Source: Elusimicrobiota bacterium (GTDB lineage Bacteria > Elusimicrobiota > Elusimicrobia > UBA1565 > UBA9628). From it: 64,000 nucleotides of DNA. The stretch covers positions 256,172-320,171 of the forward strand of contig JACRDQ010000030.1 in NCBI GenBank assembly GCA_016218545.1, read 5' to 3'. The notes beneath the pieces were generated by a model, which saw only the letters and a program-made list of their open reading frames with translations, was not told the DNA's origin and searched no databases. This document shows, piece by piece, positions 2,769 to 64,000 of the stretch (position 1 is the first letter of the stretch; every line of letters starts with the position of its first letter). The translations under genes were made by a program, and so were the position numbers.

Positions 2769-4393
2769 GGCCCGGGCTCCTCTGCGGAAAGCGCGCACGC
2801 CAGGCTCGGCTCGAGCTCGAGCGCGGCCTTGAGCCTGCGGCGGAGGATCTTGGACGACGCGCCTGAGGCGGGGTCGCGGGCATGGAGGCAGGCCGTGTAG
2901 GCCTCGAAGTAGCGGCCGGGAGCCGGGTGGTGGATGCGGAACACGGCCGTGCCTTCCCTCGGGTTCGCATAGAGCTCGGAGGCATAGGGCGTCTGGCGAG
3001 CCCAGGACTCCAGGGTGGGGAGCTTGAGGTACGGCAGTGAAGGGTAGGCGAACTCTCCGGACAGAAGGCCCCTGGAGACATGCAGGTGGGTGACCCCGCG
3101 CGCCAGGGCGGAGGCGAGCCAGGCGTGCCGGTCGTAGACGGTCAAACCCGGCGGGACCGTGCGCCGTCCCGTGAAGAGCTCCACGGTGTGGAAGGCCAGG
3201 CTCTCCACGCGCGCTTCAGCCGGGAGGTTCTCGGCCAGCCAGGCCATGGTCTCCGGCTCGAAGGCCGGCCGCGGGCCCAGCCCCCTAGCCGCAAAGCCCA
3301 GGTCATGGCGCAGGAGGGCTGCGGAGAAGGCCAGCAGCAGGAGGCCGGCGGCCAGGGGTCTGCGCTCCAGCCAGATCCTCAGTGAGGCCATGATGAGGAT
3401 GACGACGAACGGGAGCAGGGCGATGAGATACCTGGCCTCCTTCAGGGGCCAGGTGGAGTGCATGGCGAGCACGAAGATGACGTAGGTCGCCATGGCCGCG
3501 GCCGGGACGCCTTCGCTGCCCCGCGCCAGGCGCACCGAGCCGTGAGCGACGAGGGCCAGGCATCCCAGCCCGGCCGCGGCGCTCAGGGCCTCCGGGCCCG
3601 TGACCCCGGCCAGGCCCTGGCCGAAGAGCGCGCCCAGGAGCCCAAGGACATGTCCGGCCTGCTGGAGCGGGTCGGCGAACAGGAAGGACTGGGACTTCCA
3701 GTTCGCGACGAAGCCGGTGACCGTGTCTCCTGCGAGGAGGTTGCGGAGCATCCAGCCCGCCAGGGGGAGGAAGGCTCCGGCCAGGAAGGCAAGTCCGCGG
3801 CCCCACCCCAGCCTCAGCCACACGGCCATGCCCAGGCTCAGGCCGAGGATGCTGCCCTGGGGCCTGGTCAGGCACCCTAGAGCGGCGGCCAAGGACAGGG
3901 CCGGCAGGGCCCAAGCAGGACTTCCGGGAGCCAGGGCCGCGGCTCCGAGGAAGAGGGCCAGGGACAGGGCGAGATAGGGGATGTCCGCGATCACGAGCCC
4001 GTCGAGGCCCACCAGCACGGGGTTGAGGGCCACGACTAGGGCCGCGGCCAGGGCCCAGCCCGGGGAGAGGAAGCGCAAGGCCAGGCGCCAGGTCAGCCAG
4101 ACCGAGAGCAGGGCGAAGGCGACGATCATGGGCTGGAGCAGGTGCCAGCGAGGCTCGACCAGCCAGGACGGGATGAGGAGCAGGGCCGCAAACCCCGGCA
4201 GGGGATCGGTCACGGCGGCGCCGTCCGCCAAGGCGAAGGCGCCGGTCCTCAGGGACTTGGAGAGGAGGATGAAGAAGGCGTCGTCGTTGAACGCTCCCAC
4301 GGCGAAGCGCCGGGCCGCGAGCAGGTGGAGGCCTGCCAGGGCCAGGCAGGCAGGCGCCAAGAGCCATGCCATGGGGAACGCTCGTCTCTTCAT
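2765..4393 (-). CDS. Polytopic membrane protein, putative GT-C-fold glycosyltransferase (ArnT/PMT-like)
   Basis: 542-aa ORF with high GC3, many TM segments and a DD-containing first loop. Its soluble C-terminal domain (ETMAWLAENLPAEARVESLAFHTVELFTGRR...) is paralogous to the one in 1287..2768. Confidence 0.55.
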   Translation of the reverse strand: MKRRAFPMAWLLAPACLALAGLHLLAARRFAVGAFNDDAFFILLSKSLRTGAFALADGAAVTDPLPGFAALLLIPSWLVEPRWHLLQPMIVAFALLSVWLTWRLALRFLSPGWALAAALVVALNPVLVGLDGLVIADIPYLALSLALFLGAAALAPGSPAWALPALSLAAALGCLTRPQGSILGLSLGMAVWLRLGWGRGLAFLAGAFLPLAGWMLRNLLAGDTVTGFVANWKSQSFLFADPLQQAGHVLGLLGALFGQGLAGVTGPEALSAAAGLGCLALVAHGSVRLARGSEGVPAAAMATYVIFVLAMHSTWPLKEARYLIALLPFVVILIMASLRIWLERRPLAAGLLLLAFSAALLRHDLGFAARGLGPRPAFEPETMAWLAENLPAEARVESLAFHTVELFTGRRTVPPGLTVYDRHAWLASALARGVTHLHVSRGLLSGEFAYPSLPYLKLPTLESWARQTPYASELYANPREGTAVFRIHHPAPGRYFEAYTACLHARDPASGASSKILRRRLKAALELEPSLACALSAEEPGP

Positions 4394-5157: not shown

Positions 5158-6405
5158 TCAGGCGCCATAGCGGCCGACGAGCTCCTCTTTCGTCTTGCCC
5201 AGGATCCCGTGCTTCCTGCCGACCTTGACGAAGGCCTCCAGCGCGCGGTCGAGGTGGCTCGTCTCGTGGCCGGCCGAGATCTGCGTGCGGATGCGGGCCG
5301 TGCCCGGCGGCACCACGGGGTAGAAGAACCCCACGGCGTAGACGCCCTCGTCGAAGAGGTCCCGGGAGAAGTCCTGGGAGAGCTTGGCGTTGAAGAGCAT
5401 GACCGGCACGATGGGGGTGTCGCCCTCCTTGAGGATGAACCCGGCCTCGGCGAGGCCCTTGCGCCAGTAGGCGGCGTTCCTCTCGAGCTTGTCGCGCCGC
5501 TCCGTGCTCTGGGTCAGCATGTCCAGGACCCGCAGGACCCCGGCGACGACGACCGGCGCGATGGTGTTGGAGAAGAGGTAGGGCCGCGCGCGCTGGCGGC
5601 ACATCTCCACGAGCTCCCGGCGGCCGGAGACGCAGCCGCCCGAGGCGCCGCCCAGGGCCTTGCCGAAGGTCGTGGTGATGAGGTCGACCTTGCCCCGGAC
5701 CCCGTACTTCTCCGGCGTGCCCCGGCCGGTCCTGCCGATGAACCCGGTCGCGTGGGAGTCGTCTACGAAGAGCAGCGCCCCATGAGCCTCGCAGAGGCGC
5801 TCCAGCTCGTCGAGCGGCGCGCAGTCGCCGTCCATGGAGAAGACGCCGTCCGTGATGACGACCTTGAGCCTCCTGCCCGCGTGCTTCTCGAGCAGGGAGG
5901 CCAGGTGCGCCATGTCGCAGTGCTGGTAGATGTCGCGCTGGGCCTTGCAGAGCCGGACGCCGTCGATGATGGAGGCGTGGACGAGCCGGTCCGAGATCAT
6001 GACGTCGCGCTCGCCGAGGACGGCCTCGAAGACGCCGGCGTTGGCGTCCATGCAGGAGGGGAAGAGGATGGTGTCCTCGGTGCCCAGGAACTCGGTCATG
6101 CGGGCCTCGAGCTCCTTGTGGATGTCCTGCGTGCCGCAGATGAAGCGCACGGAGGACATGCCGTAGCCGCGGGCGTCCAGGCCCGCGTGCGCCGCCTTGA
6201 CGACCTCGGGGTGGCTGGAGAACCCGAGGTAGTTGTTGGCGCACATGTTGATGACCTTCCTGGGAGAGGCGCCCGCCGGGAACTCCACTTCGATGTCCGC
6301 GGCCTGGGGGGAGCGGATGAAGCGCTCGGCCTTGAAGAGCCCGGAAGCCCTGATGCCCTCGAGCTCCTTCTGGAATCCCTGACGAACCGTCTCGGTGAAA
6401 GCCAT
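5158..6405 (-). CDS. kbl: 2-amino-3-ketobutyrate CoA ligase (glycine C-acetyltransferase)
   Basis: Collinear with Kbl along its full length: VINMCANNYLG, SVRFICGTQDIHKELE, ASIIDGVRLCKA, DGVFSMDGD, VDDSHATGF, TFGKALGGASGG (PLP lysine), RPYLFSN, FFYPVVPPGTARIRTQ. Start at ATG 6405 (MAFTETV), preceded by a GGAGG-type SD. Confidence 0.9.
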   Translation of the reverse strand: MAFTETVRQGFQKELEGIRASGLFKAERFIRSPQAADIEVEFPAGASPRKVINMCANNYLGFSSHPEVVKAAHAGLDARGYGMSSVRFICGTQDIHKELEARMTEFLGTEDTILFPSCMDANAGVFEAVLGERDVMISDRLVHASIIDGVRLCKAQRDIYQHCDMAHLASLLEKHAGRRLKVVITDGVFSMDGDCAPLDELERLCEAHGALLFVDDSHATGFIGRTGRGTPEKYGVRGKVDLITTTFGKALGGASGGCVSGRRELVEMCRQRARPYLFSNTIAPVVVAGVLRVLDMLTQSTERRDKLERNAAYWRKGLAEAGFILKEGDTPIVPVMLFNAKLSQDFSRDLFDEGVYAVGFFYPVVPPGTARIRTQISAGHETSHLDRALEAFVKVGRKHGILGKTKEELVGRYGA

Positions 6406-6602
6406 GGTCCCTCCCGGTCCTCCGCGCCCCAAGACTACCATGATTGGCCGACGGAATCAACCTCGCGCGGGGCCCTGCCCGGGGCGGTTAGGTAGAACTA
6501 CGGAGTGCCCCTTGGGGCTGCCACGGATTGTGTCCCGGCCGGGGGTTGGGGTACCATGAAGTACCGCCCGGCTCCTCGACACGGCCGGGCAGGAGGACCT
6601 CG

Positions 6603-7295
6603 ATGGACTTCTCAAAGCCGCTCTCCATGACCCCTGAAGGACTCGGTCCGCACGCGCACGCCGCCCTCATCCACCTCTCCCGCCAGGAACAGCTCTCCTT
6701 CGTCGTGCCCTATCACCGCTCAGGGCTCGAGCGCGGGGAGAAGTGCGTCTGTGTGGCCGACGCCGACGGCGTCGAGGCCCTGTGGGCCGCCTTGAGGGCC
6801 GCCGGGGTCGACGCGGCCGGGGCCCTGGCCAAGGGGCAGCTCGCGAGCCTCTCCCCCGAGGAGGTCTACCTGAAGGACGGCCGCTTCGACCCTGCCCCGA
6901 CCTTGGCCGTGTTTCGGGGAGCCATCGAGGAGGCTCGCCGGCAGGGGTTCTCCGGGCTGCGGGTTTCCGCGGACATGACCTGGTCCTGCGGCGGGGCCGC
7001 GGCCATGCCGCTCCTGGCGGACTACGAGGCCGAGGTCAACCGCCTCTTCGAGGACCACCCCTTCGGCGCGGTCTGCCAATACGAATACGGCCGCTTCTCC
7101 GCGGACGCCCTGACCAGGGTCGTCTATACCCACCCCTTGGTGATCTTCGGCGGCAGGGTGCACTGGAACCCCTTCTTCATCCCGCCGAACGAGTACCTCA
7201 GGCCGCGGGACCCCGACGCGGAGCTCACGCGCGTGCTGAGCATGCTCTGCCGGGCGTCCTCCATGCGGGAGCGGCCCGTCCCCGTCGTCGTCTGA
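6603..7295 (+). CDS. MEDS-domain protein (putative sensory/regulatory)
   Basis: HAALIHLSRQEQLSFVVPYHRSGLERGEKCVCVAD... and ...GLRVSADMTW...CQY match the MEDS-domain pattern as I know it. AGGAGG lies 7 nt upstream of ATG 6603. Confidence 0.6.
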   Translation: MDFSKPLSMTPEGLGPHAHAALIHLSRQEQLSFVVPYHRSGLERGEKCVCVADADGVEALWAALRAAGVDAAGALAKGQLASLSPEEVYLKDGRFDPAPTLAVFRGAIEEARRQGFSGLRVSADMTWSCGGAAAMPLLADYEAEVNRLFEDHPFGAVCQYEYGRFSADALTRVVYTHPLVIFGGRVHWNPFFIPPNEYLRPRDPDAELTRVLSMLCRASSMRERPVPVVV

Positions 7296-7314
7296 CGGTC
7301 GGGCCCCCCCGCCG

Positions 7315-8064
7315 ATGAGTTATAATGGAAGGGTGACCCCTGGCAAGGCCGACACGAGCGGGCAGGAGGGGATCCGCTATAAGATCCTGACGGTGGATGA
7401 CGACGCCGAGTGCCTCTCCATGCTGCGGGTCTGCCTGAGCCGAGCCGGCCACACGGTGCTGGCCGCGCGCTCCGCCCGCGAAGCCCTGCTGGCCGCTGTG
7501 GACTCCGGTCCGGACCTCGTCATCTCGGACGTCCAGATGGCGGGCGATGACGGCTTCGAGCTCTCGCGCCGCCTCAAGGCCGGCCCCGCGACCGCGCGCA
7601 TCCCCATCATCCTCCTGTCCGGCGCCAGCAAGGATGTCCGGGACCAGCTCGAGGGCTTCGGCCTCGGGGTCGACGACTATCTGATCAAGCCTTTCGAGCC
7701 GGCCCTCCTCCTGGCCAAGGTCCACGCGGTCCTGCGGCGCTACGCCGTCGCCGAGGAGCTGCGGGACGTGGTGAAGTCCAGGGGCGTGGAGCTCGACGTG
7801 CAGGCGCGCACCGTGTCCTGCTCGGGGTCCCCGGTCGCGCTCAGCCGCAAGGAGTTCGACCTGCTCATCACCCTCATCCGCAAGCGGGGCCATGTCTTGA
7901 GCCCGTCGTTCCTCCTGGAATCGGTCTGGAGCCAGGACCTCGCGGAATACAACGATCCGCGCACGGTGAAGGTCCACATCTCGTCCCTGCGAAAGAAGCT
8001 GCCGCCCGCCGTGGCGCGGCGCATCATGACCGTGCCCGGCTCCGGCTACCGCTTCGACGCCTAG
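7315..8064 (+). CDS. OmpR/PhoB-family response regulator (REC + winged-helix)
   Basis: REC domain: ILTVDDDAE...DLVISDVQMAGDDGFEL...PIILLSG...DDYLIKPF. Winged helix: LSRKEFDLLITLIRKRGHVLS...RTVKVHISSLRKKL...GYRF. The true start may be GTG 7333. Confidence 0.9.
   Translation: MSYNGRVTPGKADTSGQEGIRYKILTVDDDAECLSMLRVCLSRAGHTVLAARSAREALLAAVDSGPDLVISDVQMAGDDGFELSRRLKAGPATARIPIILLSGASKDVRDQLEGFGLGVDDYLIKPFEPALLLAKVHAVLRRYAVAEELRDVVKSRGVELDVQARTVSCSGSPVALSRKEFDLLITLIRKRGHVLSPSFLLESVWSQDLAEYNDPRTVKVHISSLRKKLPPAVARRIMTVPGSGYRFDA
7321..7326 (+). promoter_or_regulatory. Candidate -10 box (TATAAT) 6 nt upstream of in-frame GTG 7333
   Basis: A perfect TATAAT lies inside the first codons of track ORF 7315..8064. 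If it is functional, the regulator starts leaderless at GTG 7333. Confidence 0.3.
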
Positions 8065-8170
8065 GCGCCGGCGGGCTTCTGCCGTCGACCGCGTCCCTGG
8101 CTTGACCTTTTTTTTACCGCCATCCGGCACACTATGATTGGGGACGGCGGACGTCGCGCCGTACGATGCC

Positions 8171-10285
8171 ATGGAAGAAGACAAGAACAAGAAACTGGCC
8201 TTACGCATCGCCTCGTTGTTGGACGACGTCTCGGAAACGCCGGAGCCCCGGGGCTCCGGCGCTCCGAGCCAGCCGGTCATCTCGCTGAGACCCGCCGTGG
8301 TGGAGGCCCTCCCCGCGGGCGCGGATCTCGGCTCTCCCGCGGTCCAGGCCCCTTCCGAGGTCCTGGCCTCGCCCGAGGTCGGGTCCGCTGTGATGGATAT
8401 CCTGCCCATCTGGGCTGACCCCGACTTTCCTGCGGAGCAGGCCGTGCCCGCGCCGGCCGAAGGGGCCGCGGCCAGCGCGGCCCCCAAGAGGTCCGTGCTG
8501 GTGGTCGACGATGACCGGGACTACCGGCGGATGGTCCGGGCCCTGCTTTCCGGCAACGGCTATGACGTCTACGAGGCCGAGGATGGGCGCCGGGCTCTGC
8601 AGTTGATCGCGCTGCACCGTCCGGACCTGGTGCTCGTGGACTTCAACATGCCGCGGATGAACGGCTACGAGATGATCCAGGAGGTGCGGAGCCGGTTCGA
8701 GACCCGCGCCATTCCGATCATCATGTTCACCGGCGCTTCCAACCGGAGCCACCTGCGGAGCCTGGGCATGGCTATCTCGGATTTCCTGGAGAAGCCGGTG
8801 TCCAATGTCAGGCTGCTGGAGAGCATCTCCAGCGTGCTCGGCGCGGAGCCGTCTCCCGAGCTCATGGGAGCGGAGTCCGCCCCGTCTCCCCGGATCGTTG
8901 CGCCGCCGAAGGCTCCGGAGACGACGCCGTCCCCGAAAGTCGTCGCAGCCGAAACCATGGCTGAGAAGCCTCCGGCGGCGCCGGCGGAGCCCGCTCCGAC
9001 GGGCCTGCCGCCGGAGCCGCTCGAAGAAGGGGACGAGGACGGGACCGAGCTCCTGCAGATCGAGGAGGAGAAGAAGGAGGAGGAGAGGCAGGAGGTCATC
9101 AGCCTCGAGCACCAGGCCAATGAGTCCCCGGTCATCAGCCAGGTGAACCGCATCCTCGTCAAGGCCGTGGGGATGCGCGCCTCCGACATCCACATCGAGC
9201 CTCAGGAGAAGCACATCACGGTCCGCGTGAGGGTCGACGGCACTCTCAAGCTCCTGTGCACCCTGCCCCTCTCCATCCATCCCCGCCTGAGCGCCCGCAT
9301 CAAGATCATGTCCAGCCTGGTCATCACGGAGAGACGCCTTCCCCAGGACGGGCAGTTCAAGACCCAGATCAGGGGCAGCCGGGTCGAGTTCCGGGTGAGC
9401 ACGCTCCCGTGCCTGCACGGCGAGAAGATCGTCATGCGCATCTTGGGCACCAGCAAGCTCAACGCCGATCTGGCCCAGATGAGCCTCCGTCCCCGCGACC
9501 TGGGCTGCGTGGAGAGGGCGCTCAGGACCCCTCACGGCCTCATCCTCGTGACCGGCCCCACCGGGAGCGGCAAGACCACCACCCTCTACACCATGATCAG
9601 CGTCCTCAACAAGCCCGAAGTCAACATCCTGACCGCCGAGGACCCCGTGGAGTACGAGGTGCCGGACATCTCGCAGGTCAAGGTCCTGCCGTCCATCGGC
9701 CTGACCTTCGAGTCCGCTCTGCGGGCCTTCCTGAGGCAGGACCCGGACATCATGCTCATCGGCGAGATCCGCGACCTGGAGACGGCCAACATCGCGGTCA
9801 AGGCCTCTATCACCGGACACCTGGTCTTCTCCACCCTGCATACCAACGGCGCCGTCGCCACCGTGACGAGGCTCGTCCACATGGGGGTGGCGCCCTATCT
9901 CGTCGCGGCCAGCGTCAAGCTCGTGGCGGCCCAGCGCCTGGTCCGGGACCTCTGCCCGTCCTGCAAGGTCCCCGGCGAGGTCTCCGACGACGAGAAGAAG
10001 TTCCTCGCGGAGGAGGAGGTCGCCAGGCTCCGATCCGTCTGGCGGAGCGCGGGGTGTCCCGCCTGCCATCAGACGGGGTACTCGGGGCGCTCGGCCCTCT
10101 TCGAGATCATGCCCCTGGACTCGGCGGCCATGCGCCAGCTCATCTGCGCCGGAGACAAGGCGGAGGAGCTCAACCGTCTGGCCCTTGCGGAGGGCATGAC
10201 CACCCTGCGGCAAGCCGCCTTGGAGGCGGTGGCGCGGGGCACGACCTCGTTGAGCGAGGCGCTCAAGGTCATGCTGGGGGGATGA
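8171..10285 (+). CDS. Response-regulator receiver domain fused to a GspE/PilB-type secretion/pilus ATPase
   Basis: REC domain (VLVVDDDRDYRRMV...DLVLVDFNMPRMNG...PIIMFTG), then a Pro/Glu-rich linker, then the ATPase core. Core motifs: ASDIHIEP, RRLPQDGQF, Walker A GPTGSGKTTT, DPDIMLIGEIRD, TGHLVFSTLHTN, and the tetracysteine CPSC...CPAC. The canonical T2SSE N-domain is absent. Start uncertain: ATG 8171 or TTG 8138. Confidence 0.85.
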   Translation: MEEDKNKKLALRIASLLDDVSETPEPRGSGAPSQPVISLRPAVVEALPAGADLGSPAVQAPSEVLASPEVGSAVMDILPIWADPDFPAEQAVPAPAEGAAASAAPKRSVLVVDDDRDYRRMVRALLSGNGYDVYEAEDGRRALQLIALHRPDLVLVDFNMPRMNGYEMIQEVRSRFETRAIPIIMFTGASNRSHLRSLGMAISDFLEKPVSNVRLLESISSVLGAEPSPELMGAESAPSPRIVAPPKAPETTPSPKVVAAETMAEKPPAAPAEPAPTGLPPEPLEEGDEDGTELLQIEEEKKEEERQEVISLEHQANESPVISQVNRILVKAVGMRASDIHIEPQEKHITVRVRVDGTLKLLCTLPLSIHPRLSARIKIMSSLVITERRLPQDGQFKTQIRGSRVEFRVSTLPCLHGEKIVMRILGTSKLNADLAQMSLRPRDLGCVERALRTPHGLILVTGPTGSGKTTTLYTMISVLNKPEVNILTAEDPVEYEVPDISQVKVLPSIGLTFESALRAFLRQDPDIMLIGEIRDLETANIAVKASITGHLVFSTLHTNGAVATVTRLVHMGVAPYLVAASVKLVAAQRLVRDLCPSCKVPGEVSDDEKKFLAEEEVARLRSVWRSAGCPACHQTGYSGRSALFEIMPLDSAAMRQLICAGDKAEELNRLALAEGMTTLRQAALEAVARGTTSLSEALKVMLGG

Positions 10286-10286
10286 T

Positions 10287-11048
10287 ATGCCCGGCATGCC
10301 GTTGGTCGAGGCCTTTCGGGGCGACCTCACGACCCAGGAGCTCTGTCGTCGGGGACGCCTCAAGCTCAGGCGTTTCGATCCTCCCGGCTACGCGGAGGCC
10401 GTCGCCTTCTTCTCGGACGCGCGGGAAGGCGATCCGGAGTGCGCGGTCTCCGTGGCCGCCCTGGCCGAAGCCTACTCGCACTGGGGTTTCGCGAGGAAGC
10501 TCATAGGGCAGGAGAGCGAGAGCTATTTCCTCCTGGCTTTCGAGAACGCCTGCTTGGCGCTGGAGATGGCCCCTGAACTCGCCGAGACGCACCGGGCCAT
10601 GGCCGTCTGCCTGAGGCACCGGCCGCGCCGCGGCCCCGAGCAGGGACTCGCCGAGGCGTCGGCAGCGGTGAGGATCAACCCTTACGACGCCATGTCCTGC
10701 TACGAGCTCTGGCGGGCGATGGGCCATGACCCCGAGTCACCCATGATCCACAAGGCCCTGGCGCTCGATCCCGCGCTGCTGACCGTCAACAATGACCTGG
10801 CGGTGTCGCTCATGGAAGCGGAGCGCGCCCAAGAGGCCGGCTTCCATCTGCGCCAGTGCCTGCGGGTCAATTACGAGAACGCGGTGGCCCGATACAACAT
10901 GGTCCTGCTCCTCGCCTGCCGCGGCAAGACCGAGCAGGCGCAGACCCTGCTCGAGGCCTGGCTGAAGGGGCCCGATTTCGAGCCGCTGGTGCGCAGCGGG
11001 AACGCGTCGCTGGCTGACCCGCGCTCCACGGGGGGGATCCTCTTATGA
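10287..11048 (+). CDS. TPR-like helical-repeat protein
   Basis: Helical-repeat composition (AEAVAFFSDAREGDPECAVSVAALAEAY...NAVARYNMVLLLACRGKTEQAQTLLEAWL). It starts 1 nt after the upstream stop and overlaps the downstream start (ATGA). Confidence 0.5.
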   Translation: MPGMPLVEAFRGDLTTQELCRRGRLKLRRFDPPGYAEAVAFFSDAREGDPECAVSVAALAEAYSHWGFARKLIGQESESYFLLAFENACLALEMAPELAETHRAMAVCLRHRPRRGPEQGLAEASAAVRINPYDAMSCYELWRAMGHDPESPMIHKALALDPALLTVNNDLAVSLMEAERAQEAGFHLRQCLRVNYENAVARYNMVLLLACRGKTEQAQTLLEAWLKGPDFEPLVRSGNASLADPRSTGGILL

Positions 11049-13216
11049 ATCGCTTCCAATCTCCGAGCCAAGATGCCGGGGGCAAGACGCCCGATCAACT
11101 CGGCGCAGAGTTCGTCCTCGAGTTGGGAAGGGCCGTCAAGGTCGTGTCCCTGTACTACGCGAACCACCCGACCGCCCTTCAGACCCTCCGGCAAGTCCAC
11201 GCCATCCTGGAGCGGCTGTTGACCGGCCTTTCCGCGGGGCGCGTCACCTTCTCCCTGGCGGCCGGACGCTGGCTCAGGGATGGTTCCCCCCTGCCTGCCC
11301 CGGGTCCGGGCGCGGACTCCCTGCTCGGCGTGTTCGAGACCCACTCCATCGAGAGCCTCACCTTCCTGGGAGGCATCAGGCCCTTCGAGCTGGTCGCTCT
11401 GGCCGAGGTCGCGGCTTCCGTCCCGACGCGTCCGGGCCGCGCCGCGCTCCAGGAGTTCCTCCAGCAGAGAGGAGTGACCCACATCAAAGCGGACATCGAG
11501 CACTATTCCAAGGAGTCGGCTCCGCAGGGCTCGGACGGTTCCCTGGCGTCCGGCTTGCCGGCCGCCTCCTCGTCCGCTGCCAAGCCCCCTGTCGCGCCTT
11601 CCGTTCTCAGGCCTGCCGCGCCTGCGCCCGCTGGCAAGCCTTCAGCGCCTGCGTCCGCTGCCAAGCCCTCCGCGCCTGCGCCCGCTGGCAAGCCTTCGTC
11701 GCCTGCGCCCGCTGCCAAGCCCTCCGCGCCTGCGCCCGCTGGCAAGCCTTCGTCGCCTGCGCCCGCTGCCAAGCCCTCCGCGCCTGCGTCTGCTGCCAAG
11801 CTTGCCGCGCCGTCGCCTTCGGTCGCTCACAGCGTCCCGGCGCAGCCTCCCAAGCCGGCTCTCCCGCCCGTAGAGGTCCGTGCCTCCGCGGCCGGGATGT
11901 GGGGCCCGCCGTCGAGCCCTGCTCCCGACTCTCACGGGGACAGGCTTGGCGTCAGTTTCGGCAGCGTGCTTCGCAAGCTCGTGGAGACCGCGGTGCAGGA
12001 TCCCGACGAGAGGTCCCACATCTACGAGGACGTGGTGGCCATGGTCAAGGAGACCTTGGACCGCCACGTCGACCAGGCGACGCAGGCGCTCTCGGAGGAG
12101 AAGGCGCGCATCGTCAGGCAGGCCGCCAGGACCGAACGGGTGCTCACCACGGTGGCGGACGGAAAGTTCACCGTGGATAAAGAGGGAAGGGTCCTCATGA
12201 TGAACGCCAGCGCCGAGATGATCACGGGAAAGCGTCTGGCCGACCTCGCGGGCAAGCACATCACCGAGGGCGTCAAGGAGGGGGAGCACATGGTCGCGCT
12301 CGCCGAGGACCTGGCGTCCCCGGCCGTGGACGGAGCAGGGGTCACGGTCGTGGCCGATGAGGCGGTGGGCGGCGCCATGCGCCGCTCCCTGGCCCTGGTC
12401 CGAGACGACGCGGGCCGCGTGGTCGGCACGTACGCCTCCCTCCCCGACGCCGCCAAGTTCAAGGAAGCCCAGCGCCTGCAGGAGGAGTTCCTCTCCCGGG
12501 TGACGCACGACCTCCAGTCCCCGCTGGCCGCCATCTGCAGCGGACTCGAGCTCCTCGCGGACAAGGTCAGCTCCGTGGGCGGTCCCGAGACGGCCCAGTA
12601 CATCGACATCTGCATGCGCAACAGCCGTCACCTCTCGGGGATGATCCGCGAGATCCTCGATTTCTCGAAGCTCGACTCGGGCAAGATGACGGTGCACCCG
12701 GCCCCTGTCTCGGCCTCAAGCCTCCTCAAGGAGGCGGTGGAGAGCCTCCAGCCCTGGGCCAAGACCAGGAAGCTCCGCCTGGAAGCGCGTTCTGCCCACG
12801 CGGATTTCTCGGTGCTGGCGGACCAGCCGCGCGTCGTCCAGGTGCTGACCAACCTCATCTCGAACGCGGTCAAGTCCACAAAGGAAGGGGGCTCGATCAC
12901 CGTGGCGGCGGTCCCGGCAGCGGAGGACGGGCAGGGGATCTTCGCGGTGAAGGACACGGGGAGCGGGATCTCCCCTGAGGACCTCGGCCGCATCTTCGAG
13001 AAGTTCGTCCAGGTCGGGGACGGCCGCAGGGACGGGGTGGGACTCGGGCTTTCCATCGTCCAGGAGTTCGTCCGATTGCACGGCGGCGCGGTCTGGGCCG
13101 AGAGCGAGCCCGGCAAGGGTTCGGTGTTCTACTTCACGCTCCCCTTGTCGCAAGCCGGAGTCATCGGCCCCGCGGCGCAGGAGGTCCTGCCGCCTTCGGG
13201 GCGGCCCCGGCACTGA
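11045..13216 (+). CDS. Sensor histidine kinase (cytoplasmic; N-terminal helical domain, PAPAxKPS repeat linker, PAS-like, HisKA, HATPase_c)
   Basis: H-box FLSRVTHDLQSPLAAI, N-box LISNAVKST, G-boxes KDTGSGISPEDL and GVGLGLSIV. No obvious TM segments. Confidence 0.85.
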   Translation: MNRFQSPSQDAGGKTPDQLGAEFVLELGRAVKVVSLYYANHPTALQTLRQVHAILERLLTGLSAGRVTFSLAAGRWLRDGSPLPAPGPGADSLLGVFETHSIESLTFLGGIRPFELVALAEVAASVPTRPGRAALQEFLQQRGVTHIKADIEHYSKESAPQGSDGSLASGLPAASSSAAKPPVAPSVLRPAAPAPAGKPSAPASAAKPSAPAPAGKPSSPAPAAKPSAPAPAGKPSSPAPAAKPSAPASAAKLAAPSPSVAHSVPAQPPKPALPPVEVRASAAGMWGPPSSPAPDSHGDRLGVSFGSVLRKLVETAVQDPDERSHIYEDVVAMVKETLDRHVDQATQALSEEKARIVRQAARTERVLTTVADGKFTVDKEGRVLMMNASAEMITGKRLADLAGKHITEGVKEGEHMVALAEDLASPAVDGAGVTVVADEAVGGAMRRSLALVRDDAGRVVGTYASLPDAAKFKEAQRLQEEFLSRVTHDLQSPLAAICSGLELLADKVSSVGGPETAQYIDICMRNSRHLSGMIREILDFSKLDSGKMTVHPAPVSASSLLKEAVESLQPWAKTRKLRLEARSAHADFSVLADQPRVVQVLTNLISNAVKSTKEGGSITVAAVPAAEDGQGIFAVKDTGSGISPEDLGRIFEKFVQVGDGRRDGVGLGLSIVQEFVRLHGGAVWAESEPGKGSVFYFTLPLSQAGVIGPAAQEVLPPSGRPRH
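11617..11805 (+). repeat. In-frame 27-nt tandem repeat x7 encoding (A/S)PA(P/S)A(G/A)KPS
   Basis: Read directly from the sequence: gcgcctgcgcccgctggcaagccttc(a/g)... alternating with gcgcctgcg(t/c)c(c/t)gctgccaagccctcc. It encodes APAPAGKPS/APASAAKPS/APAPAGKPS/SPAPAAKPS/APAPAGKPS/SPAPAAKPS/APASAAKLA. Confidence 0.85.
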
Positions 13217-13298
13217 CGCTCCCGGCCGGCCCGGCGCGGGCCTCCGGGCGACGTCATTGCGGGGGCGGGAACAAGTATGTTACCTTGAAGCCTCCCGC

Positions 13299-14021
13299 AT
13301 GAGCGATACCTGGTACCAGGAACTGGCCCTCCAGTTCGAGGACGGCACGACGGAGTCCGTTTTCCTGGACATGACCCGCAGCGGCAGGCACAAGCCGCGC
13401 GTGGCGGCCATGCCCGCCCCGTGGACGAAGCTGGAGTTCGAGCGCTGCCCGAGCTGCACGCTTCCTCCGGAGGCGGGCTGGTGCCCGGCCGCCCTCTCGC
13501 TGGAGGAGACCATCTCCAGGCTGAGCCAGCGGACCTCCATCGAGATCGTCACCGCGACCTCGGTGGACAGCGAGAACCGCTGTACGACCGTGAAGTGGCC
13601 CCTCCAGCAGGTGGGAGCGGCCTTCGTCCAGATCGCGGTCTTCTCCAGCGGGTGTCCGGTGGGAGCGCAGTTCCGGTCCATGCTCCAGGACCTGCGGCCC
13701 TTCTCCACGACCAAGGAGGTCGGCCGCCACATCGTGCTCAAGCACCTGCTGCGCCACGCCGGCTCGGTCGATGGGGCCAAGGCCGCGGTCCTCGCGAGGC
13801 TGGGGCCGCTCCGGGAGGTCTTCGGTCAGCTCTTCAAGCGCATCCAGGGCATCCCCCGCGGGGCCTCCCAGGACGCCATCCCGAACTCGATCGTGCACGT
13901 GCACGCCATGACCCAGCATCTGGAGCTCATGGTGGAGGACCTCGTGGAGGACCTCCTCAGGGAGACCCAGGTGCCGCCGACTCCGCAGCCCAAGAAGCCT
14001 CCGCCGGATCCGTCGACTTGA
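13299..14021 (+). CDS. Hypothetical protein (Cys-containing N-terminal half, Pro-rich tail)
   Basis: High-GC3 ORF with no family recognised. Contains CPSC...WCPA and SSGCP. Start placed at ATG 13299 (MSDTWYQE). Its 3' end overlaps the convergent gene by 65 nt. Confidence 0.5.
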   Translation: MSDTWYQELALQFEDGTTESVFLDMTRSGRHKPRVAAMPAPWTKLEFERCPSCTLPPEAGWCPAALSLEETISRLSQRTSIEIVTATSVDSENRCTTVKWPLQQVGAAFVQIAVFSSGCPVGAQFRSMLQDLRPFSTTKEVGRHIVLKHLLRHAGSVDGAKAAVLARLGPLREVFGQLFKRIQGIPRGASQDAIPNSIVHVHAMTQHLELMVEDLVEDLLRETQVPPTPQPKKPPPDPST

Positions 14022-17255: not shown

Positions 17256-18254
17256 ATGGCTTCGAGGAAGGACGCGGTCAAGGCCGGAGGCCGGGCGTCC
17301 CGGGCGCCCTTGGAAGAGGCGTTGGCGCCCGGGATGCGGGCGCCGCTCTACATCGGCTGGCAGCTGACCAATGCCTGCGACCTGGCGTGCGTCCACTGCA
17401 TCGAGGAGTCCGGGCCGGGCCGCGCCTTCAAGGACGAGCTGACCCGGGAGCAGGCCTTCCGTATCCTCGAGCAGATCAAGACCGAGCAGGTGCCCTACGT
17501 CGCCTTCTCCGGGGGCGAGCCCTTCCTCCACCCGCACTTCCTGGAACTGGCCGCGTTCCTCGGAGACGCCGGGGTGTCGCTCAAGGTCGAGACCAACGGC
17601 CGCCACCTCACCGAGGCGGCCGCCTCGGCGCTGCGGGACCACGGAGTCCGGGCCGTGCAGGTCAGCCTCGACGGCGCCACCCCCGAGGCCTACCGCAAGG
17701 TGCGGCCCTCCGGCGACCACGCCCGGGTCCTGGCAGGCATCCGCCTCCTGCGCTCCAGGGGCGTGGAGGTGGAGGTCAACTTCGTCCCGACGCGGCACAA
17801 CGTCCATGAGATCGGAGCCGCCGTGGACCTGGCCTTCAGCGAGGGGGTCTCCGGCTTCTACACGGGCAGGCTCATCCTGGCCGGCCACGCCGCCAAGGCG
17901 CGGGACCTGGCCCCGACCCAGGAGCAGTACGACGCCTTCTTCGCGTGCCTCAAGGCCAAGGCCCAGGAGTACAAGGGCCGCATGACCGTGCGCTATCACG
18001 AGCTGGGCATCGCGCAGGAGGTCCGCTACCGCATGGCCAACCCCGCGGCCCTCTTCGTCATCCTGCCCGACGGCAGGGTGAAGCTCCTCAACGCCCTGCC
18101 GTTCGTGTGCGGCGACCTGCGCGAGCAGAGCCTCACCGAGGTCTGGAAGGCCTTCCTCGCGGGCTGGAAGTCGCCGCGGGTGGCCGACTTCGTCGGCCGC
18201 CTGGAGGCCGACCCCGGGCTCCTGCAAGGACTGCACCGATGGATCCCTTTGTGA
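17256..18254 (+). CDS. Radical SAM enzyme A, PqqE/MftC-like, degenerate (Cys-less) SPASM-like C-terminus
   Basis: CxxxCxxC cluster motif in WQLTNACDLACVHCIEESGPG, SAM-binding FSGGEP, and KVETNG. C-terminal remnant ILPDGRVKLLNALPFVCGDLREQSLTEVW. Only 2 Cys lie outside the cluster motif. Confidence 0.8.
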   Translation: MASRKDAVKAGGRASRAPLEEALAPGMRAPLYIGWQLTNACDLACVHCIEESGPGRAFKDELTREQAFRILEQIKTEQVPYVAFSGGEPFLHPHFLELAAFLGDAGVSLKVETNGRHLTEAAASALRDHGVRAVQVSLDGATPEAYRKVRPSGDHARVLAGIRLLRSRGVEVEVNFVPTRHNVHEIGAAVDLAFSEGVSGFYTGRLILAGHAAKARDLAPTQEQYDAFFACLKAKAQEYKGRMTVRYHELGIAQEVRYRMANPAALFVILPDGRVKLLNALPFVCGDLREQSLTEVWKAFLAGWKSPRVADFVGRLEADPGLLQGLHRWIPL

Positions 18255-19198
18255 CCGAGTCCGGCGTGGAGACCGACGGCCGCGCCGCTCCGGCCCGCGG
18301 CGGCGGGAGCGGGCGGCCGAATCTGGCCCTGCGGATGGCGTCTGCGGTGCGCTACCGCTTCTTCCTGTACGCGGGACTCCTCCCGTACTTCCTCGGCGCG
18401 GCCTGGGCCCTGCGCATGGAGGGAGCCTTCGCGCCCGGCCGCTTCTGGCTGGGCCTGCTGGGCATCGGCCTGTCCGTCGTGGGTGTTGAGTCCTTCAACG
18501 AGTACTTCGACGCGCGCATGGGCACGGACCGCGTCTTCAACCCTTCCGACGACGAGTACATCCCCGCCTGGATGCTCTGGCTGGGGGTCGCGGCGTTCGC
18601 GGCCGCGGCGTGCGTGGGCATGGCCCTGGCCCATGCCGGAGGCTGGCCCATCCTCCTCTACATGGGGCTGGGCGGCATGGCCGCGGCCTTCTACGTGGGC
18701 CCGCCTTTCCGCTGGGCCTACCTGGGCCTCGGCGAGACCTCGATCGCCTTGTCCTACGGGCCCTGGATGACCCTGGGCAGCATCCACCTGCACACGGGCG
18801 CTTTCTCCTGGCGCGGCCTGGCGGCCGCGCTCGTGCCCGGCTTGCTGGTGGCGTCGCTCGCCGTGGTCAACGAGATCCCGGATTTCCACCAGGACCGGCT
18901 CGTGGGCAAGCGCAACCTCGTGGTGCGGCTGGGCCGCAGGAACGGGGTCGCCCTGTACCTCGCCCTGGCCGGGGCGGGCTTGGCCGCGTGCTTCGCAGGC
19001 GCGGCCGCGGGCTGGTTCCCGGTCGCGTGCGGCCTGGCCGGGGCCCTGGGCCTGCCGTGCTGGTTCTCGAGCGCTCGGACCGCGGTCAAGGCGTGGGACA
19101 CGCCGCGGCTTTTCGTGCCCGCGGTGCGGGACATCGTGCAGTGCTATCTCGTGACCGTGAGCGCCTTCATCATGGCGCTCGCCGTGAGGCTGCCGTGA
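18239..19198 (+). CDS. UbiA-superfamily aromatic prenyltransferase, MenA-like
   Basis: Polytopic membrane protein. First motif NEYFDARMGTD (NxxxDxxxGxD) and second motif NEIPDFHQDRLVGKRNLVVRLG (NxxxDxxxDxxxGKxxLxVRLG) have the same spacing as in MenA. ATG 18239 overlaps rSAM A by 16 nt. Confidence 0.75.
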   Translation: MDPFVTESGVETDGRAAPARGGGSGRPNLALRMASAVRYRFFLYAGLLPYFLGAAWALRMEGAFAPGRFWLGLLGIGLSVVGVESFNEYFDARMGTDRVFNPSDDEYIPAWMLWLGVAAFAAAACVGMALAHAGGWPILLYMGLGGMAAAFYVGPPFRWAYLGLGETSIALSYGPWMTLGSIHLHTGAFSWRGLAAALVPGLLVASLAVVNEIPDFHQDRLVGKRNLVVRLGRRNGVALYLALAGAGLAACFAGAAAGWFPVACGLAGALGLPCWFSSARTAVKAWDTPRLFVPAVRDIVQCYLVTVSAFIMALAVRLP

Positions 19199-20109
19199 GG
19201 ATCGCGTCCTTCGACGTTCCCCTGGCCGCTGCCTGGCGCCTGACCGACCGGTGCGACCTCTCCTGCCGGCACTGCCTCAACGCTTCCGGGCCCAAGGCTG
19301 ACACGGCCGCCGAGCTCTCCCGGCCCGAGGCTCTCAAGCTGGCCCGGAGCATCGGCTCAGCCCAGGTCCCCTACGTCATCCTCTGCGGGGGCGAGCCCAT
19401 GCTGAGCCCCGACTTCTGGCAGGCGGCCGAGACCCTGGGCGAGGCAGGCGCGTGGCTCAAGGTGGAGACGCACGGCCAGAACCTCGGGCGCACCCAGGCG
19501 GAGCGCCTGGCCAAGCTCCCCATCCGCTCGGTCCAGGTCTCTCTCGACGGGGTCACCCAGCAGGCTTACGAGTCCCTGCGGCCAGGGGCCTCCCTGGCCA
19601 AGACCTTGGAAGCTTGCCGCGAGGTGCGGCGTCAAGGCATGCCCCTCGAGATCTCCTTCGTCCCGGTCCAGGGCAACATCCACGAGGCTCCGGCGGTCAT
19701 CGACCTGGCCCTGGACCTGGGCGCCTTCCGGTTCAACACCGGGACCCTCATCAAGCGCGGCCGCGCCGCAGCCGCTTGGAAGAAGCTCCTTCCTGATGCC
19801 GAGTCCATGGCAGGCTTGCTCGCGGTCCTCACCCGTCGCGAAGCCACCCTGGCCGGGAGGCTCGAGCTCTGCTTCAGGCCTTTCAATTTCGAAGACCAGG
19901 TCCGCGCCGAACGCGCGGAGCCCTCAGGCACGCTCACGATCCTGCCTGACGGCAAGGTCCCTGTCTCGGCCTCCTCGGACGTCGTCTGCGCCGACCTTCG
20001 GACGCAGACGGTCAGGGAGGCCTGGCGCGCTTACTTGGCGGCGCACGGCAAGGGGCCACGATCGGAAAGATGGGTCGGCTCGTGTCTTGAGCCGGCTACC
20101 CGGTCCTAG
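19195..20109 (+). CDS. Radical SAM enzyme B, paralog of A and C
   Basis: WRLTDRCDLSCRHCLNASGP, CGGEP, KVETHG, ILPDGKVPV...VVCADLRTQTVREAW. GTG 19195 overlaps the prenyltransferase stop (GTGA). Confidence 0.75.
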   Translation: MRIASFDVPLAAAWRLTDRCDLSCRHCLNASGPKADTAAELSRPEALKLARSIGSAQVPYVILCGGEPMLSPDFWQAAETLGEAGAWLKVETHGQNLGRTQAERLAKLPIRSVQVSLDGVTQQAYESLRPGASLAKTLEACREVRRQGMPLEISFVPVQGNIHEAPAVIDLALDLGAFRFNTGTLIKRGRAAAAWKKLLPDAESMAGLLAVLTRREATLAGRLELCFRPFNFEDQVRAERAEPSGTLTILPDGKVPVSASSDVVCADLRTQTVREAWRAYLAAHGKGPRSERWVGSCLEPATRS

Positions 20110-20129
20110 GCCGGGATTTAGGAGACAGC

Positions 20130-20255
20130 ATGAGAGACAAGAAGAACGTGACGGATGGAAAGGCGAAGGCCGACAAGAAGCCCGTGTGGCAGACCCCTTC
20201 TCTCGAAGAGGTCACCGAGCGTGTCATGGCCCAGCCGTACATCAGGTTCACGTGA
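20130..20255 (+). CDS. 41-aa candidate precursor peptide, PqqA/MftA-like (MRDKKNVTDGKAKADKKPVWQTPSLEEVTERVMAQPYIRFT)
   Basis: Not in the ORF track because it is too short. A GGAGA Shine-Dalgarno lies 4 nt upstream of ATG 20130. About 82% GC3. Stop TGA 20253-20255 overlaps the GTG start of rSAM C (GTGA). It sits between rSAM genes and downstream of a PqqD-like gene. The W-x2-P-x3-E-V...Y-I-x3 spacing matches PqqA as I recall it. Confidence 0.6.
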   Translation: MRDKKNVTDGKAKADKKPVWQTPSLEEVTERVMAQPYIRFT

Positions 20256-21226
20256 CGCACCCGAGGGGGGCGGCGGTAGGAGACTACCGCGCCCCCCTCT
20301 TTGTCGCGTGGCAACTCACCAACCGCTGCCGCGGCCGCTGCCTGGCCTGCTGCGAGGAATCCGGTCCGGGCAAGGGAATCCGCCAAGGCGGGTCCTGGCA
20401 GGCTGAGCTCACCAAGCAGGAAGCCCTCCGCGTCAGCCGCGACATCGCGGCCTCCGGGGTCTCCTACGTGGCGTTCGGCGGGGGGGAACCCATGGAGGTG
20501 CCGCACTTCTGGGACATCCTCTCCATCCTCTCCAAGGGCGGGGTCCGCATCAAGATCGAGACCAACGGCGGGACCATCGGCCGCTCCCAGGCCAAGCGCC
20601 TCTCCGCCTTGGGCGTGTCCTCCATCCAGATCAGCCTCGACGGCCCCACGGCCCGCGAGCACGAGGCCTTGAGGCCCGGCTCGAGCTTCAACAAAGCGGT
20701 CCGGGCGGTCCGCTGTCTGGCTGAGGAAGGGCTCGGGCCTGAGGTCGTGTTCATCCCCATGAAGAGGAACGTGGGCCAGGCCGTCAAGGTCTACCGATTG
20801 GCGGCCAGTCTCGGAGCCAGGGTGCTTGCGACCGGCCCTCTCATGCGCCTGGGACGCGCCGGAGCAGCATGGAAGGAACTCGCCCCGTCGGCCGGGCGAT
20901 GGCGGACCGCGGTCCGGGCGCTCAAGGCCGAGGCCGCCCGTGCCAAGGCAGGGCCCAAGCTCTCCATCTATCCCTGGGGCATCCAGAGGGAGATCGAGAC
21001 CAGGCTCGAGCATCCCCAGGCCATGGTCCTCGTGGTGCCTGACGGCAAGGTCAAGCTCCTCAATGCCCTCCCTTTTGCTCCAGGCGACCTGCGGCGACAC
21101 TCCCTGGCCCAGGCCTGGACGCGCTGCCTCGGAGCTTGGCGCGACCCCAAGGTGCGGGCTTTCTGCCGCAAGGCCGTGAAGGACCCCGGGCTCCTGGCGC
21201 ACGCCAACGAATGCTGGCCCGCCTAA
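20252..21226 (+). CDS. Radical SAM enzyme C, paralog of A and B
   Basis: WQLTNRCRGRCLACCEESGPG, FGGGEP, KIETNG, VVPDGKVKLLNALPFAPGDLRRHSLAQAW. There is no in-frame ATG upstream of the motif, so the start is placed at GTG 20252. Confidence 0.75.
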   Translation: MTHPRGAAVGDYRAPLFVAWQLTNRCRGRCLACCEESGPGKGIRQGGSWQAELTKQEALRVSRDIAASGVSYVAFGGGEPMEVPHFWDILSILSKGGVRIKIETNGGTIGRSQAKRLSALGVSSIQISLDGPTAREHEALRPGSSFNKAVRAVRCLAEEGLGPEVVFIPMKRNVGQAVKVYRLAASLGARVLATGPLMRLGRAGAAWKELAPSAGRWRTAVRALKAEAARAKAGPKLSIYPWGIQREIETRLEHPQAMVLVVPDGKVKLLNALPFAPGDLRRHSLAQAWTRCLGAWRDPKVRAFCRKAVKDPGLLAHANECWPA

Positions 21227-22286
21227 TCCAAGCAGGCTGAGAAGAGCGCGGGGAGCTCGCCGAGCCTGCCCGCCTCGGCGAGCTTGCCCAGGTCGAAGAG
21301 GATGAGGCCTCCGGAGCCTCCCTGCCAGGCGGCGTCGGCGGCGGCCCTGAGCTCGCCGGGTCCGAGGGGATGCTCCGCGTCTCCCACGAAGATGATGGGC
21401 CAGACCGGCTTGCCCGAATCGGCCTTGACGGCCATGGAGGCGTCCGTGATCCAGGACGCGGGCCTGCGCAGGAGCGCGTGGTACGCCATGGGCGAGACCA
21501 CGTCCGCTGCCCTGCCCATGAGGCGGTGGTCCTGGCCGAGGATCTCGAGGACGGCCCCGCGCTTCTCCGAGCGCTCCCAGGGCACGGCGAAGTAGCCCAC
21601 CAGGGCCGCGGGGTCGGCCGCGTGGACCGCGTCTGCGACCTCGCTGACGAGGCCCGCGATGCTCGCGGTCTTGAACGCGGTCCAGCGCTCCTTGTGGTCC
21701 GACAGGATCCAGCGCGCCTTCTCCCTGGCCGTGAGCTCCTCCGGGACCGCGACCCCGGTTTCCTTGCGGAACTCCCTCAGGCACACCGGGCAGAAGCAGG
21801 TCTGCTCGAGATGGGGCTCGGGGACCTCCCAGTGGCCGGGATAGCGGATGAAGTCGAGCCACACGCCGTCGACTTCCTGCTTGCGCACCAGGGACACGGC
21901 GCGCTTCTTGATGTCCAGCCTGAGCCAAGTCTGGTTGGGGCAGACGGCGGCGTACCACTTGACCTTGGCGAGGGGTTCGCCGACCTCGCTGACCGGCCTG
22001 CTCTCGGGCCGCGTCTTCCAATGACGCTCTCCCGCGAAGGCTGTGAGCTCCGCGAACACGCGGATGCCACGGCCGCGCAGGGCCTTGCGGAGGAGCGGGT
22101 CCTTGTAGCCGCCGAAGACCGCGTTCACGCCCCAGGAGGAGAGGGCCTCGGCGATCCGCTCCGGGGTCTTGCCCTTGAAGGCCGCGGACTTGGGGTCGAA
22201 GCCGTAGACCCCGCACACCGGTCCGGCGTCAGCGGCAAGAGCGGGCTGGACCGCGAGGATGAGGCCGGCGAGGATGAGGAGGAGCA

Positions 22287-22287
<1 letters not shown>
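21223..22287 (-). CDS. Secreted glycoside-hydrolase-like TIM-barrel protein (GHL-type family), hypothetical
   Basis: Short signal peptide (LLLILAGLILAVQPALA), DGVWLDFIRYPGHWE and a CFCPVC motif. It is the C-terminal third of track ORF 21223..23874. Start placed at GTG 22287, next to the purH stop. Confidence 0.5.
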
Positions 22288-49192: not shown

Positions 49193-49198
49193 AGCATT

Positions 49199-49207
49199 TG
49201 ATATGAT
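49199..49207 (+). promoter_or_regulatory. Candidate extended -10 (TGATATGAT) 6 nt upstream of ATG 49214; leaderless candidate
   Basis: The sequence reads catTTGATATGATggtcggATG, in a 21-nt intergenic gap. Confidence 0.35.
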
Positions 49208-49213
49208 GGTCGG

Positions 49214-58145: not shown

Positions 58146-58160
58146 CTTCAGCAGTAGTGT

Positions 58161-58222: not shown

Positions 58223-58230
58223 AGGACCCC

Positions 58231-62671: not shown

Positions 62672-64000
<1,329 letters not shown>

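Follow-up and report, generated by a model that had tools for sequence, protein, structure and literature searches.

A PilB-type ATPase fused to a receiver domain and paired with a histidine kinase in Elusimicrobiota

Organization of the locus

We analysed a 64,000-nucleotide stretch of contig JACRDQ010000030.1 from an Elusimicrobiota bacterium, referred to as the window, with a focus on a signalling locus built around a PilB-type ATPase that is fused to a receiver (REC) domain. The window has a base composition of ~70% G+C, and genes were chosen by third-position GC. Five co-directional genes encode a stand-alone MEDS-domain protein, an OmpR-type response regulator, the REC-fused ATPase, a small TPR protein and a histidine kinase (Table 1); their order, strand and Pfam domains agree with the original prediction, which had been made from the letters of the sequence and a list of open reading frames (ORFs). 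That prediction had also linked the last three genes through a 1-nt gap and an ATGA overlap, and both junctions can be read directly from the sequence. The stop codon of the ATPase gene (TGA, 10283-10285) is separated by a single t from the ATG of the TPR gene at 10287, and the TPR and kinase genes share the ATGA at 11045-11048. The TPR gene thus appears to be translationally coupled at both ends.

The most likely start of the ATPase is the ATG at 8171 rather than the TTG at 8138, because the public annotation gives a protein of 704 amino acids (aa) and the N-termini of the family open with 'ME...'. Residue numbers below refer to this 704-aa form; in the TTG-start ORF (8138-10285) the Pfam spans are 120-230 for Response_reg and 326-709 for T2SSE. 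None of the five proteins contains a hydrophobic segment (maximum KD(19) below 1.6), and the kinase, which lacks a transmembrane segment, is called soluble for this reason, as had been proposed. On the coding strand of 6300-13500, a search for promoters and terminators yielded no useful candidate, and a TTGACC...TATGAT pair upstream of the ATPase was rejected as a promoter because its spacer of ~25 nt is too long. Rfam had no match anywhere in the window.

Table 1. Positions of the genes and protein segments discussed in the text
Feature	Positions	Strand	Basis
Stand-alone MEDS-domain protein, 230 aa	6603..7295	+	Pfam MEDS, E 6e-45; ends 19 nt 5' of the regulator gene
OmpR-type response regulator (REC + winged helix)	7315..8064	+	Pfam Response_reg and Trans_reg_C, plus NCBIfam matches
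Receiver-fused PilB-type ATPase, 704 aa	8171..10285	+	Pfam Response_reg, E 6e-25; T2SSE, E 9e-129
N-terminal helix of the ATPase, residues 2-17	8171..8221	+	AlphaFold, pLDDT ~70; degenerate copy of L-x-A-E-L-D-A-L-L-G
Receiver domain of the ATPase, residues 108-223	8492..8839	+	Residues conserved across sets of 118 and 29 homologues
Small TPR protein, 253 aa	10287..11048	+	Weak Pfam TPR_19 match, 25.0 bits, exactly the cutoff
Soluble histidine kinase, 723 aa	11045..13216	+	Pfam PAS, HisKA and HATPase_c
DUF6901 gene, sixth co-directional	13257-14021	+	Pfam; 3' of the kinase
Canonical PilB (MshEN + T2SSE)	62672..64000, cut by the window end	+	Pfam

A canonical PilB with its normal N-terminal domain had been expected near the end of the window, and the MshEN and T2SSE domains found there by Pfam bear this out. 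It is 43% identical to the REC-fused copy over the shared core, and it carries short insertions in the N2/ATPase region relative to that copy, for example PTGKNSK and LGEDKKFD. The absence of adjacent pilin, platform and secretin genes noted earlier agrees with the scans. Pfam detected no PilC/GspF, PilM-Q or secretin domain among the larger ORFs that were scanned, which otherwise encode housekeeping or signalling proteins. These ORFs account for most of the window, with 18254-22287 and the majority of the small ORFs outside the scan. A search of all six frames of the whole window for the prepilin signature G-FTLIE likewise gave no match.

The ATPase keeps a PilB-type motor core and lacks the N1 domain

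The domain arrangement of the ATPase was modelled with AlphaFold2 from a 29-sequence alignment (mean pLDDT 72.7). The model places a helix at residues 2-17 (pLDDT ~70), disorder at 19-102, the receiver at 108-223 (pLDDT ~95), a disordered linker rich in Pro, Glu and Ala at 226-299, the N2 domain at ~320-430 and the C-terminal ATPase domain at ~440-704. The ATPase has no Pfam match to the T2SSE_N or MshEN models of the N1 domain. The earlier description of the usual N-terminal domain as replaced by about 110 unstructured residues and a receiver therefore holds in part: the receiver occupies the N1 position, but the predicted helix gives some structure to the first 107 residues.

The motor itself is complete. 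Within the 29-homologue alignment the Walker A motif (462-469), the Walker B region (D524-D535, including E532) and the His box (548-559) are invariant, as is a zinc tetracysteine (C595/C598/C629/C632) typical of extension ATPases; in the set of 118 homologues the same motifs are likewise invariant or nearly so. Sequence matches in the PDB cover only residues 301-702, with Myxococcus and Geobacter PilB (382-373 bits) ranked above EpsE/GspE (~351 bits) and then PilF; none of the matches listed is a solved chain that spans both the receiver and this ATPase. Fold comparison with Foldseek gave a similar ranking, with TM 0.84-0.89 and 42-47% identity to PilF and PilB, 44% identity to EpsE, and 25-29% identity to PilT and PilU. 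All three relevant NCBIfam models scored below their cutoffs: PilB (TIGR02538) at 524.5 bits against 675.65, GspE (TIGR02533) at 504.5 bits against 630.25, and the PilT family (TIGR01420) at 183.7 bits against 319.1.

By sequence, the protein is best described as a variant of the PilB-type ATPases that falls outside PilB proper, because the motor core and zinc site are kept while the N1 domain is missing and the equivalog cutoff is not reached. Assignment to GspE is countered by the absence of the N1E domain, the score under the cutoff and the lack of gsp genes nearby among the larger ORFs scanned; assignment to PilT or PilU is countered by the score and by the presence of the tetracysteine. 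Many of these proteins are labelled 'Flp pilus assembly complex ATPase component TadA' by NCBI. This public name looks wrong, and systematically so, since family models and structures point to the PilB/GspE type. The best 25 NCBIfam matches, led by PilB, GspE and TfpB, include no model for TadA/CpaF, and no TadA/CpaF chain is among the 60 PDB sequence matches or 50 fold matches listed.

Two other assignments of the motor bear on these data. The ATPase might be a retraction or bifunctional motor, composed of N2 and C-terminal domains like PilT and CpaF, with the receiver setting its direction. The missing N1 domain, said to separate extension from retraction ATPases (PMC11656802), speaks for this idea, which we nevertheless judge very unlikely given the much higher identity of the core to PilB and PilF than to PilT and PilU, the low score with the PilT model, the invariant tetracysteine and the separate PilT-like gene present in two of the loci compared below. 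Alternatively, the ATPase might power an endopilus of the type II secretion kind, so that phosphorylation would gate protein secretion. The genomes of Elusimicrobium are said to abound in pseudopilin-like genes, the GspE score lies close to the PilB score, and EpsE/GspE rank just behind PilB whether sequences or folds are searched. We still regard secretion as an improbable function, because the nearest relatives that lack a receiver are annotated as type IVa PilB, genes of the PilT family, which type II secretion systems lack, adjoin the ATPase in two loci, the GspL-binding N1E domain is absent and no gsp genes are adjacent.

The receiver retains its acceptor site and carries residues of its own

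Loss of the phospho-acceptor Asp or the conserved Lys had been set in advance as the outcome that would count against a phosphorylated receiver. Both residues are present, as D157 and K208, and both are invariant in ~118 homologues. The remainder of the acceptor site is also intact, with the D113/D114 pocket, T187 and the aromatic switch residue F205. D114 and F205 are likewise invariant and T187 is at least 90% conserved in the 118 homologues and the 29-sequence alignment; in the same two sets K208-P209 is invariant or nearly so.

The receivers of this family also have invariant residues of their own, D117-Y118-R119 and N164-G165-Y166-E167. Judged by their offsets from the acceptor residues, both segments should flank the active site. 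D117-Y118-R119 is expected at the start of helix alpha1, which we take to be the usual kinase-docking face. The D-Y-R motif is lost in the receivers of a short-linker subfamily, described below, that also lacks a syntenic kinase in the three loci examined, and this joint loss would fit a role of the motif as part of the kinase-docking surface.

An old Elusimicrobiota lineage among several receiver-PilB fusions

The window ATPase is 100% identical to a protein from an Elusimicrobia metagenome-assembled genome. When the best 120 clusters at 90% identity were considered, the 118 that were aligned all carry REC and T2SSE domains at 49-70% identity, and every family member with a phylum name is from Elusimicrobiota. 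The linker between receiver and motor varies across the family from 26 to 177 residues.

To survey receiver fusions and place this family, we searched 1.84 billion cluster representatives without a profile, then scanned with Pfam and classified the matches locally. Fusions of a receiver to a PilB-type ATPase are common in metagenomes and fall into three architectures. The first, REC-T2SSE without N1, is the clade of the window; it includes a short-linker subfamily of ~550-625 aa together with some forms of 670-710 aa, and the named members of both are Elusimicrobia. The second is REC-MshEN-T2SSE. The third is MshEN-T2SSE-REC; the set examined held 59 such clusters, including one named as Omnitrophota. 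Dozens of 50%-identity clusters represent these last two arrangements. The receivers of the second and third architectures are generic and do not carry the motifs of the window family. A rough neighbour-joining tree of ATPase cores, calculated without support values and useful as a rough guide only, gathers all N1-less fusions in one clade and scatters the other two architectures among ordinary PilBs.

The rarity that the original prediction had implied for REC-T2SSE proteins was thus not upheld: the arrangement defines a large Elusimicrobiota clade, and the two other receiver-PilB arrangements are frequent in metagenomes. That prediction had also named a common, already characterised family as an outcome that would speak against it. 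The architecture is indeed common, but full-text searches found no description in the literature of PilB, GspE or MshE fused to a receiver.

The closest relatives without a receiver are type IVa PilB by annotation (47-50% identity; Acidobacteriota, Polyangia, Thermodesulfovibrio). Since identity to these PilBs of other phyla exceeds the 43% identity to the canonical PilB of the same window, the ATPase represents an old lineage rather than a paralogue of recent origin.

In scans of genome and metagenome contigs, the only family members among the matches listed were L003 and L086-L089. An apparent Omnitrophota fusion at L055 ('residues 107-700') proved to be an artefact in which a PilB gene is followed by a separate regulator gene. 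The survey also returned, outside the window, many clusters of ~1000-aa proteins with two tandem T2SSE domains (P0121, P0123-P0142, P0276-P0290), and P0121 appears to join a T2SSF platform domain to T2SSE.

The ATPase and kinase genes form the conserved unit

The gene neighbourhood was compared across 13 loci of the window's subfamily, namely the window, L001-L003, L083-L088 and L169-L171. An orthologue of the PAS kinase lies 3' of the ATPase in 12 of the 13, the exception being L170, and the two genes usually share an ATGA overlap or are spaced by a few nucleotides. In a six-way alignment the kinase orthologues were 40-65% identical over their full length. The domain-architecture and neighbourhood search for REC-T2SSE fusions that had been proposed as a check therefore bore out the neighbouring kinase as the likely phosphodonor, as far as gene order can indicate this.

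The other members of the cluster are less constant. A DNA-binding regulator is found upstream of the ATPase in eight of 11 loci, of the OmpR type in the window, L001 (72% identity), L002 (64%) and L085 (46%), and of the AraC type in L003, L083, L086 and L171. L084 and L169 have no adjacent DNA-binding regulator, and there the kinase still adjoins the ATPase. A TPR gene directly follows the ATPase in five of the 13 loci (window, L084, L088, L169, L170). The window protein is 41% identical to that of L084 and 37% to that of L088, and L169 and L170 have a TPR gene of similar size at the same place; as L170 has the TPR gene and no kinase, the TPR gene tracks the ATPase. The MEDS gene was found in the window only and is absent from the other 12 loci. 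The five genes consequently do not hold together as a unit, as had first been supposed. On this comparison the conserved unit appears to be the ATPase with its kinase, and the TPR gene and the DNA-binding regulator appear optional.

A PilT-family gene overlaps or abuts the start of the ATPase gene in two of 12 loci (L085 and L088; motifs GPTGCGKS and AVSNLIRE). The three loci of the short-linker REC-T2SSE subfamily (L166, L167 and L168; P0274, P0295) have no kinase or regulator nearby. Some loci have further neighbours: in L171 a gene for a REC-HD (HD_5) protein follows the kinase (12337-13326), and in L169 a hemerythrin gene follows the kinase with a second hemerythrin gene ~4 kb upstream (3807-4289 and 12378-12890). 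These neighbours may hint at links to second messengers or to the sensing of O2, NO or iron.

The neighbourhood data bear on two further accounts of the receiver. In one of them the receiver needs no phosphorylation and serves for dimerisation or localisation, and the kinase acts only on the DNA-binding regulator. TadZ/CpaE carry an atypical receiver, and the short-linker sister subfamily has no adjacent kinase in its three loci. Pseudo-receivers occur in pilus systems, among them the REC domain of FimX, which has no acceptor Asp (PMC11656802). In the window family, on the other hand, the acceptor-site residues are all invariant, and the kinase stays beside the ATPase in the two loci where no DNA-binding regulator adjoins it. 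We hold a phosphorylation-free role to be highly improbable.

In the other account the ATPase engages no filament machine and is a signalling output or a phosphate sink, with its nucleotide state or its receiver modulating the pathway to the DNA-binding regulator. It gains from the absence of machine genes next to the ATPase at any locus, from the position of a single kinase flanked by two receivers, and from the precedent of Myxococcus PilB, which regulates exopolysaccharide production (PMC11656802). A deep clade has, however, conserved every catalytic motif and the zinc site along with the entire N2/C-terminal core, which would be costly for a mere sink, and the pairing of kinase and ATPase is steadier than the presence of the DNA-binding regulator, which is missing from three of the 11 loci and is of two types. 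We consider such a role unlikely.

Architecture of the kinase

The kinase consists of a conserved N-terminal domain (1-165, motif LY...HP), a Pro/Ala repeat linker, a coiled region, a PAS domain, HisKA with H488 and HATPase_c. The N-terminal domain had no Pfam match even at an E value of 5, and a homologue search with it returned nothing; a single-sequence structure model of this domain reached a pLDDT of 45 and was unusable. The linker between the N-terminal domain and the PAS region is encoded in part by a tandem DNA repeat at 11611-11811, which can be read as 7.4 copies of a 27-nt period or 3.4 copies of a 54-nt period (95% match) and which encodes the Pro/Ala-rich AAKPSAPAPAGKPSSPAP. The length of this linker varies widely among orthologues.

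An N-terminal peptide with likeness to FliM

Among 112 N-termini of the family (P0003-P0120), 73 carry the motif L-x-A-E-L-D-A-L-L-G in the N-terminal helix; a stricter form occurs in 36 sequences, compared with 0.1 expected in shuffles. The motif resembles the N-terminus of FliM that binds phosphorylated CheY, MGDSILSQAEIDALLNG, in a comparison with Salmonella FliM (8umd_C), and the 7-mer A-E-[IL]-D-A-L-L is common to the family and to residues 9-15 of that protein. The family profile scored 10.2 bits against the FliM N-terminal peptide in this targeted comparison, and a PDB-wide profile search with the motif did not retrieve FliM at E values up to 10. The window copy, LALRIASLLDD, is degenerate and scores -0.3 bits against the family profile.

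We treat the likeness to FliM as a lead, not a finding. The peptide and its disordered tether could form a docking site of the FliM N-terminal kind for a phosphorylated receiver, driving or blocking closure of the hexamer; this seems rather unlikely to us. Under such a scheme the peptide may be gripped by the phosphorylated receiver of the neighbouring subunit or by a free CheY-like protein. If it were true, one chain would unite a motor with both a 'CheY' and a 'FliM N-terminal peptide', and the logic of the flagellar switch would be applied to a pilus motor without N1.

A candidate phosphorylation-gated pilus motor

The ATPase has the domain content of a receiver joined to a motor, its catalytic and acceptor residues are intact and conserved throughout the clade, and the kinase is syntenic with it. 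Together, the receiver and the adjacent kinase suggest that phosphorylation switches a pilus motor directly. We find it moderately likely that the locus is a two-component module dedicated mainly to the control of the ATPase, which would act as an accessory, phosphorylation-gated pilus extension motor. A type IV pilus is favoured over type II secretion because the core is PilB-like, PilT genes occur as neighbours and the nearest relatives are annotated as PilB, and because a canonical PilB is co-resident, an accessory motor that is engaged conditionally is the simplest reading. For phosphotransfer, the sign of regulation and the identity of the machine driven, we infer beyond what domain content, conservation and synteny provide.

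In our model, the soluble kinase would sense a cytoplasmic cue through its N-terminal domain, its PAS domain or both, and would autophosphorylate on His488. The phosphoryl group would then pass to Asp157 of the receiver fused to the ATPase. The upstream DNA-binding regulator would probably be phosphorylated by the same kinase, so that transcription and motor activity shift together; in the window, the OmpR-type regulator is likely to be the transcriptional arm of the module. Once phosphorylated, the receiver would most probably serve as a tethered binding module that substitutes for N1 and promotes or blocks hexamer formation or docking on a pilus platform encoded elsewhere. We favour a tethered module over a rigid allosteric lever because the linker is disordered and ranges so widely in length. 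Where present, the TPR protein may act as an adaptor. Pilins would be polymerised by the N2 and C-terminal core in the manner of PilB, with the canonical PilB running the default mode.

Several observations weigh against a phosphorylation-gated extension motor. The range in linker length, 26-177 residues, argues against a fixed allosteric interface, and since N1 is absent, engagement with the platform cannot be assumed. The scores with the PilB and GspE models both fall short of their cutoffs. No pilin, PilC, PilM-Q or secretin gene was found within 10 kb of the ATPase in any locus examined. One locus of the subfamily, L170, has no kinase, and the short-linker sister subfamily is fully orphan in its three loci.

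Comparison with known regulators of pilus motors

A 2024 review lists as regulators of PilB c-di-GMP acting with MshEN, PilZ with FimX, the Pil-Chp system and phage proteins, and no receiver in cis (PMC11656802). The N1 domain is described there as binding c-di-GMP, as thought to contact the stator, and as the feature that distinguishes extension from retraction ATPases. PilB and MshE share with the window ATPase an N-terminal regulatory module, the Walker, Asp and His boxes, the tetracysteine and the N2/C-terminal core, which in the window protein is 46-47% identical to Geobacter PilB (TM 0.84-0.89). They differ in carrying N1/MshEN, where the window ATPase has a phosphorylatable receiver on a disordered tether.

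Receivers without a DNA-binding output that are aimed at pilus motor ATPases are known in trans. DrdR, a REC-REC regulator of Xanthomonas campestris, binds both PilB and PilT, whose ATPase activity it stimulates (PMC13507683, 2026); it is a separate orphan protein, whereas the window receiver is covalently fused and has a syntenic kinase. The PatA-type regulators PixG and PixE of Synechocystis bind PilB1 and PilC (bioRxiv 10.1101/2021.06.11.447907; PMC11181946), so that here too the output of a phosphorelay goes to the motor and platform and not to DNA. These proteins act in trans through a PATAN domain, downstream of a chemotaxis-like CheA kinase, and involve no fusion. Among fused forms, REC-MshEN-T2SSE and MshEN-T2SSE-REC are also receiver-PilB fusions, but they keep N1 and have generic receivers. 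In the NtrC-family REC-AAA+ activators NtrC1 and DctD, a receiver lies N-terminal to a ring ATPase and its phosphorylation controls ring assembly. These activators are a mechanistic analogue only, as they have the AAA+ fold, where the window ATPase belongs to the PilT/VirB11 class, a short structured coiled-coil linker in place of the long disordered one of the window family, and sigma-54 transcription as their output.

The activation of PilB-type motors and the role of N1 are open questions (PMC11656802), for which the N1-less clade offers a natural experiment. Should phosphorylation gate the assembly of the hexamer or its docking on the platform, a type IV filament motor would for the first time be seen under direct covalent control by a two-component system. 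Such control would stand beside the binding of c-di-GMP by MshEN and the trans regulators DrdR, the PatA-type proteins, PilG and PilH. The three soluble proteins would also provide a simple biochemical system for the control of PilB by an N-terminal module.

Other features of the window

Two genes lie close to the canonical pilB. A receiver-first hybrid kinase of 426 aa (REC-HisKA-HATPase_c; 56952-58232, minus strand) is a few kb upstream, and a subtilase with a C-terminus resembling FlgD-Ig and Por_Secre_tail (60608-62221) is directly upstream. A region of ~4 kb at 18254-22287 had no confident gene call by third-position GC; its overlapping ORFs are atypical in codon-position composition, and it had no Rfam match.

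A dense signalling stretch occupies 45726-53259. It begins with a protein combining FHA and adenylate/guanylate cyclase domains (45726-47462). Two TPR proteins, both large, follow at 47429-49192 and 49214-50872, and the last protein joins TPR to a Ser/Thr protein kinase (50869-53259). An ORF of 764 aa at 41199-43493 shows an unusual pairing of a Ham1 (ITP/XTP pyrophosphatase) domain with a long TPR array.

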